Below, piece after piece: positions 2,402-57,600 of a DNA stretch of 64,000 nt. The DNA comes from Escherichia phage OLB35. A program made the translations under genes and the position numbers. The first letter of the stretch is position 1; every line of letters begins with the position of its first letter. The notes below the pieces were generated by a model. That model saw only the letters and a program-made list of their open reading frames with translations. It searched no databases and was not told the DNA's origin. The stretch is from the sequence record MH992122.1; one strand, given 5' to 3'.

Positions 2402-4727
<2,326 letters not shown>

Positions 4728-50186: not shown

Positions 50187-50579
50187 CTACTTTTTAAAAG
50201 TTTTTTGCAAAAGTTTGATGATTTCGTCGACGTTGGTTTCATCTACGATACAATGGATTTTTGTTACACCTAAAGTTATACCTTCGTTAGTAGGTTGAGG
50301 CTTTACTAAATCTACCTCAATAAAGTATTTGAACTCGTCAGGATAAATCTCAAAATAAGTTTCAATTTCACCACCGGCAGAACATACAGTACCATCTTCC
50401 ATAGTTACACTTACTACGTTTGACGTATCGCTATCATAATCAGGTTCCATTCCGTTTACAACAAAACTAGGCCCGTGGAGTTCAATTAATTTTAACATCT
50501 TAGCGTTATTGTGTGGTGCTTCTTGAACAAAGTCGTCTTTAAATAAAGGGTTAATGATATAAGATTTTCCGATTTCCAT
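50187..50579 (-). CDS. Hypothetical protein (frd.3-like)
   Basis: 130-aa ORF preceded by early promoter 50609-50637 and a GAGGA SD. Confidence 0.55.
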   Translation of the reverse strand: MEIGKSYIINPLFKDDFVQEAPHNNAKMLKLIELHGPSFVVNGMEPDYDSDTSNVVSVTMEDGTVCSAGGEIETYFEIYPDEFKYFIEVDLVKPQPTNEGITLGVTKIHCIVDETNVDEIIKLLQKTFKK

Positions 50580-50608
50580 TTTGATTTCCTCATGTTGTTG
50601 ATAAGTCT

Positions 50609-50637
50609 ATACTAACACATCCAGGGAAGAAGTAAAC
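50609..50637 (-). promoter_or_regulatory. Early-type promoter (GTTTAC / TAGTAT) for the frd.3-like unit
   Basis: GTTTAC, 17-nt spacer, TAGTAT, followed by leader with GAGGA SD. Confidence 0.55.
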
Positions 50638-50668
50638 AACTTTTTCGGCAATTTACAGATACTCAAAA

Positions 50669-50686
50669 GGGAGACCGAAGTCTCCC
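50669..50686 (-). terminator. Terminator GGGAGAC-UUCG-GUCUCCC after gene 32
   Basis: Minus-strand hairpin followed by UUUUGAGUAU. Confidence 0.7.
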
Positions 50687-50692
50687 AATTTA

Positions 50693-51592
50693 TTATAGAC
50701 CAGCTAACAGGTCATCAAGGTCGCCATCATCAGAAGACGAGGAACTCATGAAGTCATCTTCAGTTTTTGCAGAACTAAAGGCTTCCATGTCTTTATCAAA
50801 ATCGTCAAGGTCAGAAGCAACTTTATCTGCAACAGAAGCTGCTGCGGCTGCTGCACCACCAAGAGCGGCAGTACCAAGAACCTTAGCGAAAGATTCATTT
50901 AATTTTTCAAAGGATTTGAACTGGTCTTTAGCCGTCAAAGTAGTAAGGTCTACCATCTGGTCGTATAGTTCTTTCTGGAATGCTTCGTCATTAATACGAG
51001 GAATTTCAGATTGACCCAAGAATTTAGATTCGTCATAGTTGCTAAAACCAGAAACCTGCTTAGCTTTCAGAACGAAGTTAGCACCTTCAAACGGACAAGT
51101 AACATCAACTGGAGTTTCACCCATTTCGGTATCAACTGCAATCATTGCATTGATTTTGTCCCAAATCTTTTTACCGAAACGATATTTAAATACTTTACCT
51201 TCGTTATCTGGAGCTTGAGGGTCTTTAACAACCAGAATATTAGCCCAATAAGAAGTTTTACGTTTCAGTTGAGAATATTCAGTTTTGTTGGTATTGTACA
51301 GGTCATTTTTACTAATGTACTGACATACAGGACAAGAGTCGTAATCACCATGTGTAGAAGAGCAATTTTCAATATACCATTTACCATTTTTCTTGAAACC
51401 GTGGTTAACAAGAATTGCAAATGGTAGTGCATCATCAGTTTTTGCTGGCAAGAAACGAATTACCGCTTGACCATTACCTGATGCATCTAGCTTCAGCTTC
51501 CATTCGCCTTTATCTTCTGAAGAGAAACCTTTGTTACCGTTCAGTTTAGCCATTTGAGCAGCGAGGTCAGCAGTAGATTTACGTTTAAACAT
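50693..51592 (-). CDS. 32: Single-stranded DNA-binding protein gp32
   Basis: 299 aa (T4 301); acidic C-terminal tail; structured AU-rich leader upstream. Confidence 0.95.
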
Positions 51593-51663
51593 GGATTATT
51601 ACCTTTTATTTAGATTATTTAATTTATTTACAGTTGGTTGCTACGACACTTATACCTCGTAGC
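51593..51663 (-). promoter_or_regulatory. Gene 32 mRNA leader: hairpin plus AU-rich (U)UAAA-repeat tract, candidate autogenous translational operator
   Basis: 6-bp stem GCUACG/CGUAGC (51640-51645 with 51658-51663); then about 45 nt of AU-rich leader CUGUAAAUAAAUUAAAUAAUCUAAAUAAAAGGUAAU before the ATG. Confidence 0.55.
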
Positions 51664-51710
51664 TGGTATGATTTATTTATAAAGTAATTTTAACACACAA
51701 GAAATAAAGC

Positions 51711-52364
51711 TTAATACTTACATGATTTGATTGTTTCTATGAACAATTTCTTAGCAGCATTTCCATCGATTTGGAGTATTTTTCGATATGCCTTTAATTT
51801 GGTAGAATAATTTTGCCAGACTAAATTGTCAGTAAGTTCGTCATGCTTATCTATAATATTCAAGAATGAATCCAACAACAAGAAGGTTTCAAATGAAATT
51901 ATATTGCTTTGTAGCAATTTAAATATGTAGCTCGACTGAACTTTATTATTATAATCAAATATCTCTTGAAGCGCACTAACTTCCACTTTCTTACTGAAAT
52001 AGTAGATGTTACGTACATCTTCAGCAAACGTCTCCTTGGCTTGTTTGAGACGTCCAATATATTCCCTATAGAAAACTAATGCATCAGCGTCTGAGATCTC
52101 ACCAATCCATGCATCTTGGTTAGCAACTAAGTTACTGATGAATATCAAAGTGAGTTCCTTTAACTTATATTTCTCTGCTAGTTTCTCAAAGAAATATTTA
52201 TCTCGGCGTTTTTGATACGCATTATCCGAAACACGCATGCACCAGTTATATTTGATTACGTCATACCGACCACCAAAATGGTTTTTGCACATCAAGTATA
52301 GTTTATATACCGATTTTCCGTTAATATAACGTTCTCCATCAGGAGGCATGCGTATTTTAATCAT
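51711..52364 (-). CDS. 59: Helicase loader gp59
   Basis: 217 aa as in T4; close match to recalled T4 gp59 (MIK.RMP..GERYI.GKSVYKLYLM...). Confidence 0.9.
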   Translation of the reverse strand: MIKIRMPPDGERYINGKSVYKLYLMCKNHFGGRYDVIKYNWCMRVSDNAYQKRRDKYFFEKLAEKYKLKELTLIFISNLVANQDAWIGEISDADALVFYREYIGRLKQAKETFAEDVRNIYYFSKKVEVSALQEIFDYNNKVQSSYIFKLLQSNIISFETFLLLDSFLNIIDKHDELTDNLVWQNYSTKLKAYRKILQIDGNAAKKLFIETIKSCKY

Positions 52365-53040
52365 ATTTCCATCCGGGCCATTTTGAAGATTTAAGTCTAT
52401 ATGTAACTAAAGACGCAGAAATATTAAAAACATTTGAAACTTCTTTACACGAGGCGTATTTTATACCATCAATAATTATAGGTTTTTGTTTTTTAATAGT
52501 TCTTTCTTTAGAATGCGGCTTTGAATTTGCTATTCTAAGAGCTTCTTTGGTTGAATCAGGCATCGGCTTATTCGTTTTTCGCCCTTTTCGGACTTTACTC
52601 AAGGCCAATTTGTGAGCTTCAGATAGTTTCTTACCCTTATTAGGTGACGGTATTTTTCTTTCTAGTCTTGTTTTAGATACTTTAGCCTTAGTCTCTTCAG
52701 ATCTAGGTTTACCTAATTTAGAAAGTGAAATAGACCTTTTAGCTTCATCACTTTGTTTTTTACCAGGACCACCTTTACCACCGGGAACTAAGTTATAAGT
52801 ATCATCTCGCAAAACAAAATCTTCGTTAACCAATTCTGCTTCTTTTTTATAGGCGTCCTTGTCATTATCATATTCATAAAGAATTTCGGTATAAAAATTT
52901 TTTAGTCCATATTTAGCTTTGGCCGCTAATATAGCGCGGCCTGATCCAATATACCAATCTTTCTCTTTATGTTTTTTGTGTACGCCTATATAAATTTTAC
53001 CATTTATTTTATTGGTAGTTTTATACACAACGTATTTCAT
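52357..53040 (-). CDS. GIY-YIG homing endonuclease (Seg-like, free-standing)
   Basis: 227 aa; N-terminal GIY-YIG module (GKIYIGV ... WYIGSG ... R ... E ... N) and lysine-rich C-terminal repeats typical of Seg/I-TevI DNA-binding regions. Confidence 0.85.
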   Translation of the reverse strand: MKYVVYKTTNKINGKIYIGVHKKHKEKDWYIGSGRAILAAKAKYGLKNFYTEILYEYDNDKDAYKKEAELVNEDFVLRDDTYNLVPGGKGGPGKKQSDEAKRSISLSKLGKPRSEETKAKVSKTRLERKIPSPNKGKKLSEAHKLALSKVRKGRKTNKPMPDSTKEALRIANSKPHSKERTIKKQKPIIIDGIKYASCKEVSNVFNISASLVTYRLKSSKWPGWKYD

Positions 53041-53375
53041 AATAAGAAATCTAACGTATTAGTTTTTTCACCACGAGCAACTGATGGGCGAAGCATGTTT
53101 TCGTCAATTGCTTCGCTTGTAATTTTTTCAACAATTCCTGTAGGAATAAATTTAGCAAATTGTGTTTCTGGAATAGAATTTTCTTCCAAGAAAGCAGTTG
53201 TTGCTTCTAAATAAGACATACCAAATTGTTCAACCATGGATTCGATAATGAATCCGTTTTCTTGACGGTCAAGCAATTTAGCGATATCATCTTTATCGTG
53301 TTTTACTGCTAATTCTTGTTCAGATAAACCGGTCTCATCAACCGGTTTAATATCACTTAGTGAAAACTGTGTCAT
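53037..53375 (-). CDS. 33: Late transcription accessory protein gp33
   Basis: 112 aa as in T4; position between dsbA and 59. Confidence 0.9.
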   Translation of the reverse strand: MTQFSLSDIKPVDETGLSEQELAVKHDKDDIAKLLDRQENGFIIESMVEQFGMSYLEATTAFLEENSIPETQFAKFIPTGIVEKITSEAIDENMLRPSVARGEKTNTLDFLL

Positions 53376-53622
53376 AAAGCTCGACTACCTCTTCGTTTTC
53401 AGCTTCAAATTGGTCACGAGCATCTTTATGATAAAGAGCTAACAAACGATTAAACATTTTTCCATCGACGCCAAGCTCTTCTTTAGCACGAGTACGAATG
53501 TCTTTAATCAGTTCATTATAACCAGAAATTTTAAGTTTGTTATCGGAAGCTTCCTTGACTAGTTTAGCCAGTTCTTCACCATGCACATCTTGATTAAATT
53601 CAACTGCTTCTTTCTTAGCCAT
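53353..53622 (-). CDS. dsbA: DsbA double-stranded DNA-binding protein
   Basis: 89 aa as in T4. Confidence 0.85.
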   Translation of the reverse strand: MAKKEAVEFNQDVHGEELAKLVKEASDNKLKISGYNELIKDIRTRAKEELGVDGKMFNRLLALYHKDARDQFEAENEEVVELYDTVFTK

Positions 53623-53629
53623 GTTTACC

Positions 53630-54547
53630 TCAGAATTCGTTAATTACACTTGTTAATTTAGAAAGACCAGATTTTACAAAGTATGAATAAATCTTGCCTT
53701 TAGGTTGTGGTTGATATGAGTTATAATACTCTATAATGGTTGAAGCAATATTATCAGGAATATAATCAAAATCAATTAGAACTAAATTTTCCTGATACCG
53801 TTTATATTCTTCTGCACTTAATAATACTTCAGCTTGAGAACGGTCATTGGCAATTGCTTCAATAATCGTTGTTTTCATGCTTGGAGTTCGTTCGCCTTCA
53901 ACTCGAGTAAACCAGAAGTCACCACGAACTCGAACAGACGCAACACCATCTTTACGGTCGCCTTTAAGAATTTTAGTCATGCAATCAATTTCAGCAGAAC
54001 CATTCTTAATTTTAACCCATTTTTTCTGCGGTGGCGACCACTGTTTAACGTTAGGGTACTTGTGTAATTGTGTAAAGTCACCATCTGATGCAACAATACA
54101 CACCTTATGACCAGCTAATGACAAATATTTAGTTAATACACCGATATGGTCATCCGCTTCGTATTTGTCAATATCCATTACAACGTATGGCATATATTTC
54201 TTAATCTCATCAACAACTTGATGAAGTGCAGTAAAATATCCTTCCCAATCCCACTTTGAAGCTTCACGATCGGTTTTACGATTTTTCTTATAATAGTAAG
54301 CAAAGTCACGACGCCAATATCCAGAAGTAGCGTTATCCATGCACAATACAAATTTTGTATAACCTTGCTTACGGAACATCACTACGTTTTTACGAATTGA
54401 ATTCAAGACTACATGGCGAACCATCGGAACAGTAATTTTATCACCGTCTTCAAAGTTGTTTAATGCAGCTGCCAATGCAATGTTACTAAAGTCGGCAAGT
54501 GCAATACCTTCTTTGTAATCTTCATTCAACATCATTTCTAAATCCAT
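53630..54547 (-). CDS. rnh: RNase H (5-prime to 3-prime exonuclease, FEN family)
   Basis: 305 aa as in T4; N-terminus MDLEMMLNEDYKEG matches T4 RNase H. Confidence 0.95.
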   Translation of the reverse strand: MDLEMMLNEDYKEGIALADFSNIALAAALNNFEDGDKITVPMVRHVVLNSIRKNVVMFRKQGYTKFVLCMDNATSGYWRRDFAYYYKKNRKTDREASKWDWEGYFTALHQVVDEIKKYMPYVVMDIDKYEADDHIGVLTKYLSLAGHKVCIVASDGDFTQLHKYPNVKQWSPPQKKWVKIKNGSAEIDCMTKILKGDRKDGVASVRVRGDFWFTRVEGERTPSMKTTIIEAIANDRSQAEVLLSAEEYKRYQENLVLIDFDYIPDNIASTIIEYYNSYQPQPKGKIYSYFVKSGLSKLTSVINEF

Positions 54548-54625
54548 ATGAACCTCTTGTTCAGTTAGTCAACTTGGACTATAGTAACATACTAGTTCGA
54601 AAGCGTAAATAGTCTTTTACTCATT

Positions 54626-54633
54626 TATAAATA
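54626..54633 (+). promoter_or_regulatory. Late promoter TATAAATA (gene 34)
   Basis: Exact TATAAATA about 35 nt upstream of the gp34 ATG. Confidence 0.7.
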
Positions 54634-54667
54634 GTAAAATAGAACACATAATGATAAGAGGACTACC

Positions 54668-57600
54668 ATGGTTGACATCAAACGTAAGTTCAGGGCCGAA
54701 GATGGTCTTGACGCAGGCGGTGATAAGATAGTTAACGTTGCGCTTGCTGACCGCACAGTTGGCACCGATGGCGTGAACGTTGACTTTTTGGTGCAAGAAA
54801 ACACCGTACAGAATTATGACGATACGCGCGCGTATACAAAAGATTTTATTGTTCTTTATGATAATCGTTTTTATCAAGCTTTAAACGATATTCCAGCTCC
54901 GGCAGGCCCTTTCTCTTTGGCTAAATGGAAGGCAACTCGTACAGATGCAGAATGGATTACAGTTCAAGGCGGAGATTTCCAATTATCAGTAGGTAACTCT
55001 ATCGCGGTTGATACTTCAGCTGGCACTGATATTAATTTCACTTTGCCTCAAAATCCTTTAGATGGCGATACAGTTATTTTGTCTGATATTGGCGGTAGAG
55101 TAGGCTATGTAAAAGTTCAAATTACTGCAGCGGCTCAAAGTATTGTAAACTTTAGAGGACAACAGGTTCGTTCAGTTTTAATGACGCACCCAAAATCTAA
55201 AATGGTCTTCATTTTTAGCAACCGCCTATGGCAAATGTATGTTTCTGATTACGAACGTAATGCAGTCACAGTAACTCCTGCTAAGCCATATCAGGCGCAA
55301 CCTAATGATTTTATCATTCGACGTTTTACATCAGCCGCTCCTATTAATATTACATTGCCTCGTAATGCTAATAATGGCGATATTATTAATTTAGTTGATT
55401 TAGACAAATTAAACCCATTATATCACACAATTGTCAAAACTTACGATGATACAACTTCTATACGAGAAGCTGGTGTTCATGTAGCAGAAGGACGTAATAC
55501 TGCGGAAGCATTCTTTGTTTATGATTCTGCTAATAGCTTATGGCGTGTTTGGGAAGGTGACCAGAAATCTCGTTTACGTATAGTTCGTAATGATACTGAT
55601 TTACGCCCTAATGAAGAAGTTCTTGTTTTTGGAACTAATAATGATACAATCTCGACGGTAAATCTTACTTTGCCTACAGATATTTTGTCTGGTGATACTG
55701 TTAAAATATCGTTGAATTATATGCGTAAAGGGCAAACTGTAAAAATTAAAGCTGCTGAAGGCGATACAATTGCTAGCAGTATTTCTTTATTACAGTTCCC
55801 AAAACGTTCAGAGTATCCACCTGATGCACAATGGGTTTCTGTTAGTGAGCTGGAATTTAATGGCGATACTTCGTATGTACCTGTACTTGAGTTAGCTTAT
55901 ATAGAAGATTATTCATCTGAAACAAAATATTGGGTAGTTCAACAAAACACTGTAACCGTCGAACGAGTCGATGCATCGAGCAATACAACTCGAGCTCGTT
56001 TAGGTGTTATTGCTCTTGCTTCTCAAGCGCAAGCAAATGTCGATTTAGAAAATGCTCCTGGTAAAGAACTGGCTATTACTCCGGAAACATTAGCAAATCG
56101 TACAGCAACTGAAACTCGTCGTGGTATTGCTCGTATTGCAACAACTGCACAAGTTAACCAGAATACCGATTTTGCATTCCAAGACGACTTGATTATTTCT
56201 CCTAAGAAATTGAACGAACGTACAGCAACTGAAACCCGTAGAGGTGTTGCTGAAGTTGCAACTCAGGCTGAAACTAATGCTGGCACAGATGATACCACTA
56301 TTATTACTCCTAAGAAATTGGATGCCCGTCAAGGTTCTGAAGTTTTATCTGGTATTGTAAAATACACATCTACGACTGGTACTACAGCGGCTACTGTTCG
56401 TGGTAATGCTGGGACTAACGTTTATAACAAAGCCGTAGATAATTTAACTATTTCTCCAAAGGCTCTTGACCAGTATAAAGCTACCCCTACTCAACAGGGC
56501 GCAGTAATTCTTGCTATTGAAAGTGAAGTTATCGCTGGTGAATCACAAGCCGGTTGGGCTAATGCTGTAGTGACCCCTGAAACACTACATAAGAAAACTT
56601 CTACTGATGGACGTATTGGTTTAATTGAAATTGCTACGCAAGCAGAAACTAACACTGGAACTGATTATACTAGAGCAGTAACGCCTAAGACGTTAAATGA
56701 TAGGAAAGCTACGGAAGGATTATCCGGCATAGCCGAAATTGCTACGCAAGTTGAATTTGATACTGGAACTGACGATACTCGTATCTCGTCTCCACTGAAA
56801 ATTAAAACTCATTTTGATTCTTCTGACCGTACCAGTGTTAATTCTGATTCCGGACTTATTGAAGAAGGAACCTTGTGGAACCATTATACTCTTGATATTT
56901 CTAAAGCAAATGAAACACAACGTGGTACACTTCGCGTAGCGACTCAGGCAGAATCTAATGCCGGAACTTTAGATGATGTTCTTATTACTCCTAAAAAACT
57001 TTTAGGGACTAAGTCCACTGAAACGTCTGAAGGTGTGATTAAGGTTGCTACTCAAGATGAAACTGTAACGGGAACTTCCACTAATACCGCTGTATCACCT
57101 AAGAATTTAAAATGGATTGTCCAGGATGAACCAACATGGGCTGCTACTACGGCAATTCGTGGATTCGTTAAAACTTCATCCGGTTCTATTACATTCGTTG
57201 GTGACGATACTCAAGGTAGTACCCAGGATCTGAATCTTTACGAGAAAAATAGTTATGCTATTTCTCCATATGAATTAAACCGTGTACTTGCTAACTATTT
57301 GCCATTGAAAGCTAAAGCCGTAGATAGTAATCTGTTAGATGGTCTAGATTCTCTCCAGTTCATCCGTAGAGACATCGACCAGACGGTTAATGGTTCTTTA
57401 AGTCTTACTAAACAGACCAACCTGAGTGCTCCTTTAGTATCTACAAGCACTGCTTCTTTTGGATCTGAAGCATCTGTTACTCGTAGATTAACTCTTAATG
57501 ACTCTAGCGGTTCCGAAATAGTTTTCACTAAAGGAACCCAATCTCTTAGTAATAAAGAGAATTTCGTTGTTAGAGCATGGGGTAATAGCGCTACAGATGG

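Follow-up and report, generated by a model that had tools for sequence, protein, structure and literature searches.

A predicted Seg-type GIY-YIG homing endonuclease gene at the gene 33/59 junction of a Mosigvirus and of related T4-like phages

In T4-like phages, now much used as model systems and in therapy cocktails, marker exclusion and mosaicism are driven by free-standing homing endonucleases. Among the T4 enzymes, SegC is given as active and site-specific in PMC2988022 (Table 1 therein); like the gene described here, it is encoded by a promoter-less cassette that overlaps the upstream gene (PMC2988022). I-TevI, encoded in the td intron of T4, joins an N-terminal GIY-YIG domain through an extended linker to a C-terminal helix-turn-helix. 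SegG, the product of a free-standing GIY-YIG gene between genes 59 and 32 of T4 (PMC2988022, Table 1 therein), targets gene 32 and cuts at a distant site (PMC535899, PMC2988022). In T4, the cuts made by free-standing endonucleases lie hundreds to thousands of base pairs (bp) from their own genes, and the stretch between the cut and the endonuclease gene is necessarily co-converted (PMC2988022). T4 has nothing between genes 33 and 59. In Escherichia phage OLB35 (record MH992122.1), of which a stretch of 64,000 nucleotides (nt) was analysed (the window), this junction holds an open reading frame (ORF) encoding 227 amino acids (aa), referred to below as seg. We consider seg likely to be a Seg-type GIY-YIG homing endonuclease gene, free-standing and of a lineage associated with the 33/59 junction, that homes through the 5' end of gene 59, as its surroundings predict. 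Direct support comes from what the protein is and how it is built, from the presence or absence of the gene at one precise position, from homologues occupying this position in four genera, from decayed copies, and from the clustering of insert-linked substitutions near the start of gene 59. The class is well understood, databases already label the protein 'homing endonuclease', and it is absent from T4. New here are the exact empty site and insert, the lineage occupying the junction in multiple genera, its decay and module exchange, and a target prediction with named natural alleles.

Comparison with protein families and structures places the seg product close to I-TevI and the Seg proteins, in agreement with the GIY-YIG homing endonuclease that the original prediction from the sequence had proposed. 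The protein matches PHROG 314 ('homing endonuclease') over its full length (3.2e-56), and relatives list the orthologue as homing endonuclease or Seg-like. NCBIfam TIGR01453 matches residues 4-225 with 74.5 bits (cut-off 56), and Pfam I-TevI_DNA-bd (PF20987) matches residues 183-226 with 46.4 bits (cut-off 27). Two further Pfam families stay just below threshold, the SegE-type GIY-YIG domain with 22.4 bits against a cut-off of 25, and NUMOD3 with 18 bits against 20.4; four repeats of the latter kind are visible in the alignment and in the model. A profile built from 36 homologues matched the PDB entries 1I3J (the I-TevI DNA-binding domain, 9e-7) and 1MK0 (the catalytic domain, E=0.0099), and the single sequence matched 1I3J at 7e-4. 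An AlphaFold model built on the homologue alignment (mean predicted local distance difference test score, pLDDT, 87) had 1MK0 as its top Foldseek match in the PDB, with a template modelling (TM) score of 0.68, target-normalised, followed by 1I3J, 1LN0 and I-HmuI; the Foldseek probability of the match to 1i3j_A was 1.00. Taken from sequence and model, the seg protein is an I-TevI-type two-domain enzyme and a predicted nuclease.

The catalytic module had been called canonical, and this holds with one qualification. Y6 (the Tyr of 'GIY', here VVY), Y17-I-G19 (YIG), E67 and N83 are invariant across the 36 homologues, and so are H21 and Y30. An invariant arginine aligning with R27 of I-TevI was not found among them. 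The segment following YIG, a helix carrying R27 in I-TevI, is modelled in seg as a loop bearing the invariant H21 and Y30. The variant motif of the YIG region need not speak against activity, because SegC has the same motif and is listed as active. The lysine-rich DNA-binding repeats of the original prediction are borne out: four NUMOD3-like repeats with the pattern S-x-E-x-K-x-x-(I/L)-S extend over aa ~95-175, helices are predicted at residues 98-108, 115-128, 141-151 and 162-173, and 30% of the residues at aa 90-200 are lysine or arginine. With only one Cys, the protein cannot form a zinc finger. Unlike I-TevI, seg lies outside any intron, has no zinc finger and carries a linker of NUMOD3-like repeats.

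The nearest T4 protein is SegC, with 33% identity over nearly the full length. SegC and seg have in common the motif YxGVHK...D.Y.GSG...KYG..NF...EAE.V.E.F...TYN..GG.GG and a C-terminal helix-turn-helix. They differ in length (198 aa in SegC, 227 aa in seg), in the number of NUMOD3-like repeats, which is higher in seg, and in insertion site and target, SegC sitting between genes 5.1 and 5.3; seg is a paralogue of SegC and not an orthologue. Orthology with SegG was rejected as well. The segG gene is likewise a free-standing GIY-YIG gene that flanks gene 59 within the same transcription unit, but it lies on the opposite side (59|32 rather than 33|59), and the best BLASTP match between the two proteins has E=1.1. 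The original prediction was right both in placing segG on the other side of gene 59 and in taking the present insertion site as a different one.

Relatives of OLB35 provide a direct comparison between occupied and empty junctions. The window belongs to Mosigvirus, the RB69 group, and the best match to positions 51500-53700 is Escherichia phage 55 (99.2%). Among 183 matching phage records, 28 span the whole of this query, and ~125 align in two pieces with 95-99% identity over 70% of it, which leaves out the ORF; RB69 is one of these empty-site records. The occupancy of the junction in Mosigvirus is hence 28 of ~154 records, about one in five. An alignment of 5.2 kilobases (kb) around ten occupied and 11 empty loci gives an insert of exactly 676 bp, with a 5-nt direct repeat, TATGA, at its boundaries that makes their exact position ambiguous. 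In the empty allele, exemplified by phage p000v, the stop codon of gp33 and the start codon of gp59 overlap as ATGA, same as in T4, and the ATGA that joins gp33 to seg in OLB35 is the one that joins gp33 to gp59 in empty genomes. The claim of a mobile element inserted into an intergenic junction is therefore upheld as regards the insertion, given the abundance of empty sites, but the site is not truly intergenic, as gp33 and gp59 overlap by 4 nt when it is empty. An ORF present in all relatives with no empty site, or one devoid of the catalytic residues, would have refuted the original prediction; the residues are present and the empty sites are plentiful.

The resident copies are mostly intact. 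Nine of the ten fetched Mosigvirus copies are full length and differ by up to 38 nt, while the copy of phage AV116 (L004:1501-2185) has a 1-nt insertion and stops from codon 108 onwards, and only its 3' part is annotated, as a hypothetical protein. Variable codons with silent changes only and those with replacements number 26:14 in seg, against 38:6 in gp59 and 10:2 in gp33 of the same genomes. Patchy presence, intact and moderately constrained copies and occasional decay together correspond to the life cycle predicted for homing endonucleases. No compositional signature of foreign DNA was found in the insert (32.8% guanine plus cytosine, against 33-34% in the flanks), and a tblastn search of the 64-kb window found no further copies of this endonuclease family.

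The same junction is occupied outside Mosigvirus. The nearest homologues from beyond this genus are 47-58% identical to seg over the full length, and every homologue that was looked up is placed between gp33 and gp59 and overlaps the gp33 stop by 4 nt; in most of them the 8-nt overlap with gp59 is present too. Occupancy is sporadic within each genus. In Dhakavirus the junction is occupied in four records (IME540, two records of AnYang, and LQ5), and ~45 relatives are empty. In Karamvirus it is occupied in one of ~33 records, Enterobacter phage KMB20, whose copy (P0038) is annotated as a truncated fragment of 132 aa, and also in Karamvirus-like metagenome contigs. Further homologues occur in contigs encoding a protein that carries the name of Serratia phage LC53 at NCBI, and in one unassigned contig. 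LC53 has been placed in Winklervirus, and its gp244, the neighbour of Gp33 (gp245), is shared with Kc304 and missing from Virsaitis27 (PMC10132071). By sequence and position, seg is a member of a lineage specific to the gene 33/59 junction of T4-related phages and present in at least four genera.

Members of this lineage appear to exchange their DNA-binding modules. The proteins of loci L008 (3001-3696, P0004) and L006 (3001-3600, P0012; a Karamvirus carrier) agree at 100% of positions over the nuclease domain and the shared part of the linker, but their identity drops to 42% over the last 48 aa. The C-terminus of the L008 protein is 75% identical to a Dhakavirus protein and carries an extra repeat. 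Such a pattern suggests that the DNA-binding module was exchanged in nature. We considered whether the helix-turn-helix and an 'immune' gene 59 allele travel together and rejected it, since the helix-turn-helix of L008 is Dhakavirus-like and its gene 59 5' end resembles that of the Karamvirus carriers.

Because the stretch between the cut and the endonuclease gene is co-converted in the T4 systems, we searched for substitutions linked to the occupancy of the junction. Five of the 817 variable sites in the 5.2-kb Mosigvirus alignment are strongly linked to it, and all five lie in gene 59 at nt 60-92. Carriers have TAT for TAC at nt 60 (Y20, silent), AAC for CAA at nt 82 and 84 (Q28N), and GGT for AAT at nt 91 and 92 (N31G), so that four of the five linked sites alter amino acids. 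Among carriers, nt 27, 45, 48 and 54, which are closer to the insert than nt 60, are polymorphic, and nt 60-92 are not. On the gene 33 side, the 3' end of the gene hardly varies and shows almost no linked change, so the tract is one-sided. In a database-wide search, the 56-nt carrier allele was found in all 28 carrier records with 98-100% identity. The alternative allele was found in ~96 empty records and never together with the insert (Fisher p ~7e-15 for the association, uncorrected for phylogeny).

Comparable tracts accompany the insert in the other genera. The Karamvirus carrier L006 differs from the empty loci L014 and L016 by 20 mismatches packed into gene 59 nt 24-84; nearly each third base differs at nt 39-84, and there are no differences at nt 85-176 or in the last 40 nt of gene 33. 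Elsewhere within ~1 kb to the left and right, stretches of 50 nt mostly show 0-2 differences and never more than 4-5. The tract looks like an import from a diverged donor. In Dhakavirus, two near-identical carriers differ from three empty genomes by nine linked sites, at nt 15, 33, 57, 63, 64, 73-75 (M25Q) and 78; all fall within nt 15-78 and none beyond. In three genera whose endonucleases are 48-57% identical, the tracts thus lie within gene 59 nt 15-92, are one-sided, end at nt 78-92, and each include amino acid changes within codons 25-31 of gp59, a conserved essential protein. We predict from these alignments that the target, comprising the binding region and the cut, is located at about nt 45-95 of gene 59 (codons ~15-31), and that carriers hold resistant alleles.

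Homing at this junction would proceed as follows. In a mixed infection, the enzyme would bind the genome lacking seg through its helix-turn-helix and NUMOD3 repeats and cut the sensitive allele within the first ~100 nt of gene 59. Repair templated by the carrier genome would then transfer seg and the neighbouring 5' part of gene 59, and the outcome would be intronless homing with co-conversion and local marker exclusion. Carriers would be protected by the substitutions of the patch, which in OLB35 are the silent change at Y20, Q28N and N31G. Nuclease activity, the position of the cut, immunity, the mode of expression, marker exclusion and gene conversion all enter this scheme as predictions. 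If the target is as predicted, crosses between carrier Mosigvirus and RB69-type phages should be biased around genes 33, 59 and 32, and the element would impose amino acid changes on the helicase loader. The Mosigvirus phages compared here carry modified cytosines in their DNA.

A number of observations weigh against this scheme or parts of it. The literature searched contained no cleavage, homing or marker-exclusion study of a 33/59 element. R27 of I-TevI has no invariant counterpart among the homologues. The carrier-type allele of gene 59 is also present, at 96-100% identity, in ~30 empty Mosigvirus records, including 13 LF82-series phages, AV111, F2, G2285, PNJ-9, sutha, JQD51 and KAW3E185; our sample of 21 genomes had overstated the association between allele and occupancy, and these records came to light in the database-wide check. 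They could descend from carriers that lost the insert by recombination or could be pre-existing variants, and in the latter case the association may be simple founder linkage; it could thus come from a founder or from linkage instead of from immunity. In Karamvirus as in Dhakavirus, the comparison draws on just two near-identical occupied genomes. The enzymes of L006 and L008, with their different helix-turn-helix domains, adjoin nearly the same 5' allele of gene 59, which is hard to square with a simple pairing of one DNA-binding domain with one immune allele. Finally, CAACG at gene 59 nt 90-94, a pentamer of the I-TevI cleavage motif type, is retained by the carriers of two genera. Only Mosigvirus alters the pentamer at this position (TAATG to TGGTG), which marks the distal end of the tracts. 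A search for a CNNNG motif kept in sensitive alleles and lost in carrier alleles gave no candidate consistent across the genera.

Several of these observations would be expected if seg were a genuine homing endonuclease gene whose gene 59 allele is only hitch-hiking, an account that we regard as possible but clearly less probable. The insert would have entered a Mosigvirus that already had N28 and G31, linkage over 60-90 bp would have kept the two together, and the cut would fall elsewhere: at the 33/59 junction itself, which insertion destroys, in gene 33, or, as for SegF and SegG, at a distance of hundreds of bp, in line with the distances usual for the free-standing endonucleases of T4 (PMC2988022). 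The empty records with the same 56-nt allele and the common allele beside the unlike DNA-binding domains of L006 and L008 are readily explained in this way. The same holds for the empty-site phage LF82-1 (L040), which has the empty-type base at nt 60 and carrier-type bases at nt 82-92; it is either a recombinant within the patch, in an interval of 22 nt, or a product of endonuclease loss. In AV111, F2, G2285, PNJ-9, sutha and JQD51, which are empty as well, the carrier-type allele is complete. Simple linkage accounts poorly, however, for the 5' segment of gene 59 being the densest in insert-linked changes in three genera with such divergent endonucleases, for replacements at codons 25-31 of a conserved essential protein in all three, and for one-sided tracts with closely similar end points. 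It also leaves the polymorphism of the four sites nearer to the insert unexplained, since these vary among carriers and the more distant nt 60-92 do not.

An inactive resident, decaying or domesticated, was also considered, one kept for the ribosome-binding site and start of gene 59, for repression through DNA binding as with I-TevI, or for competition between phages. The GGATGG element at the 3' end of seg and its overlap with the gp59 start fit such a role, as do the persistence of a frameshifted copy in AV116 and a truncated one in KMB20, a constraint below that of the neighbouring genes (26:14 against 38:6 in gp59), and the lack of an R27 equivalent. Gene 59 is, however, expressed without seg in empty genomes, nine of ten fetched copies retain their full length with all invariant catalytic residues, and the patchy distribution over four genera together with the donor-like Karamvirus tract points to repeated recent transfer; an inactive resident is therefore improbable. 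Repeated deletion of a gene present in the common ancestor is very unlikely, because even though a long vertical residence would fit the between-genus identity of the endonuclease (47-58%, close to the 54-61% of gp33), each deletion would have had to restore exactly the 4-nt ATGA overlap seen at all examined empty sites (Mosigvirus, Dhakavirus, Karamvirus, T4 and T4-like contigs), the Karamvirus carrier tract at nt 39-84 stands beside flanks of 97-99% identity as an import from a diverged donor, and the swapped C-terminal domain of one variant indicates exchange between lineages.

Homing through gene 59 can be extended to a broader proposition, which we advance tentatively and hold to be rather unlikely in its full form. 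The 33/59 endonucleases would be an old lineage spanning multiple genera and engaged in an arms race with the helicase loader: they would target codons ~15-31, force replacements in the conserved N-terminal domain of gp59, and re-target by swaps of the DNA-binding module such as that between L008 and L006. The replacements found in this domain are Q28N and N31G in OLB35, M25Q in Dhakavirus, and L26I and N28Q in Karamvirus. If the proposition were true, the locus would be a natural example of protein evolution driven by a selfish element in a core replication gene. The system is a tractable one, with a small protein, a predicted target of ~40-50 bp, and natural alleles predicted to be sensitive or resistant, and could serve to study site choice by Seg-type enzymes with NUMOD3 repeats and the ways in which carriers gain immunity.

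The position of seg relative to its neighbours is as originally described, with an ATG start on the minus strand and both overlaps in place. The coordinates of the features are collected in Table 1. The seg gene lies on the same strand as the conserved genes on either side, both of them essential, one for transcription and the other for replication, in the order rnh, dsbA, 33, seg, 59, 32, which matches annotated relatives. The final two bases of its ATG (53040-53038) are common to the TGA of the gp33 ORF, which yields the predicted ATGA, and the upstream junction reads on the minus strand ...GAT TTC TTA TTATGA AAT ACG.... At the downstream junction (...TGG AAA TAT GAT TAA AAT ACG C...), the gp59 ORF includes the seg stop codon TAA (52359-52357) among its first 8 nt, where it is formed from gp59 codons 2-3 and the sequence reads ATGATTAA. 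GGATGG, supplied by the 3' end of seg, is located 4 nt 5' of the gp59 ATG. This element is kept as GGATGGAA(A/T)TAT(C)ATGATTAA in Mosigvirus, Dhakavirus and Karamvirus-type loci, and the LC53-like copy reads AATTGGAAATATT. The insert has thus appropriated the start context used by gene 59 at empty sites, and its 3' end supplies the replacement.

Table 1. Location of seg, its domains, flanking genes, junctions and the predicted target in the window (minus-strand features; positions counted from the first letter of the stretch)
Feature	Position	Strand	Basis and remarks
seg ORF, free-standing Seg-like GIY-YIG homing endonuclease gene	52357..53040	minus	227 aa, ATG start; ORF list and sequence, PHROG 314, TIGR01453, annotation in relatives
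GIY-YIG nuclease domain, aa 1-92	52765..53040	minus	36-sequence alignment, profile against PDB, AlphaFold/Foldseek
Basic linker, aa 93-182, four NUMOD3-like helical repeats	52495..52764	minus	Weak Pfam NUMOD3, predicted helices, lysine and arginine content
I-TevI-type helix-turn-helix DNA-binding domain, aa 183-227	52360..52494	minus	Pfam PF20987 (3.5e-12), PDB 1I3J, Foldseek
676-bp segment absent from empty-site relatives	52361..53036	minus	Alignment of Mosigvirus loci; junction alignments against phage p000v
Insert-linked patch in gene 59, predicted target/immunity patch	52273..52305	minus	nt 60, 82, 84, 91, 92; linkage to occupancy
Gene 33 (late-transcription co-activator), upstream flank	53037..53375	minus	112 aa; Pfam Trans_coact 3.4e-26
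Gene 59 (helicase loader), downstream flank, predicted target gene	51711..52364	minus	217 aa; T4_Gp59_N 1.9e-49, T4_Gp59_C 1.7e-44
ATGA overlap, gp33 stop and seg start	53037..53040	minus	Sequence
3' end of seg and gp59 start region	52357..52374	minus	GGATGG Shine-Dalgarno-like element at 52369-52374; seg TAA within gp59 codons 2-3

No Shine-Dalgarno sequence was found before the ATG of seg, and translation is therefore probably coupled to that of gp33. Neither the late promoter consensus TATAAATA nor a terminator was found inside the element, and the only nearby match to the consensus is at 51674-51681 (minus), upstream of gene 32. No promoter of its own was found for seg, and sigma-70-like matches did not rise clearly above those in shuffled sequences. 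Co-transcription with the neighbouring genes and low-level translation coupled to the termination of gp33 is the most likely mode of expression judging from the sequence, and several of the promoter-less seg and mob cassettes of T4 display such a coupled low-level pattern (PMC2988022). On this model, seg would be part of the rnh-dsbA-33-59-32 transcript and receive little translation, starting from the ATGA at the gp33 stop, and its 3' end would furnish the ribosome-binding region of gene 59. An RNA hairpin hiding the start of seg or of gp59 was unsupported (z-scores -0.65 and +0.58); the empty-site junction folds slightly better, with an unconvincing z of -1.9. The NCBIfam name of TIGR01453 refers to group I introns. 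An intron-encoded endonuclease was rejected, since no Rfam family matches at E<=1 in 50500-54700 and complete protein genes abut or overlap the ORF on both sides; seg is free-standing, as had been proposed.

A further name from the literature is attached to the orthologue of seg in Shigella phage Shf125875, whose annotators call it 'SegH; similar to RB3 segH'. SegH of RB3 (ABI48949) and relatives and seg are both Seg-type GIY-YIG proteins. Sandegren and colleagues reportedly described in 2005 that SegH replaces mobC. The mobC gene is located between nrdG and nrdD (PMC2988022, Table 1 therein), so the locus of SegH would differ from the 33/59 junction.

In many Dhakavirus genomes, an orthologue of SegG, 58% identical to the T4 protein, was found between genes 59 and 32 (L003:3845-4462 in IME540, L049:2397-3014, L050:1700-2335 and L051:1718-2335). 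Gene 59 of IME540 and AnYang is accordingly bracketed by two different GIY-YIG endonuclease genes, which form a small 'endonuclease island'. In the Karamvirus-like contig L024 (2501-2640; IMG/VR 2700989062_000001), gene 59 has an apparent 1-nt insertion at ~nt 57 that breaks the frame; the cause may be an error of sequencing or a genuine lesion, and the position is inside the predicted target patch. The RefSeq record of RB69, NC_004928 (L043:1710-2237), annotates gene 59 with 528 nt (175 aa), and the other fetched Mosigvirus records annotate the full ORF of 654 nt overlapping the gp33 stop; the start of the gene is probably mis-annotated in the RB69 record. Across the window, the late promoter consensus TATAAATA occurs 18 times against 7.7 expected from shuffled sequences. 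Its occurrences are mostly on the plus strand within the first 27 kb (for example at 4720, 6114, 6770, 7390, 9346, 10298, 11022, 13123, 15490 and 17965), a distribution that fits a block of late genes in this part of the window.

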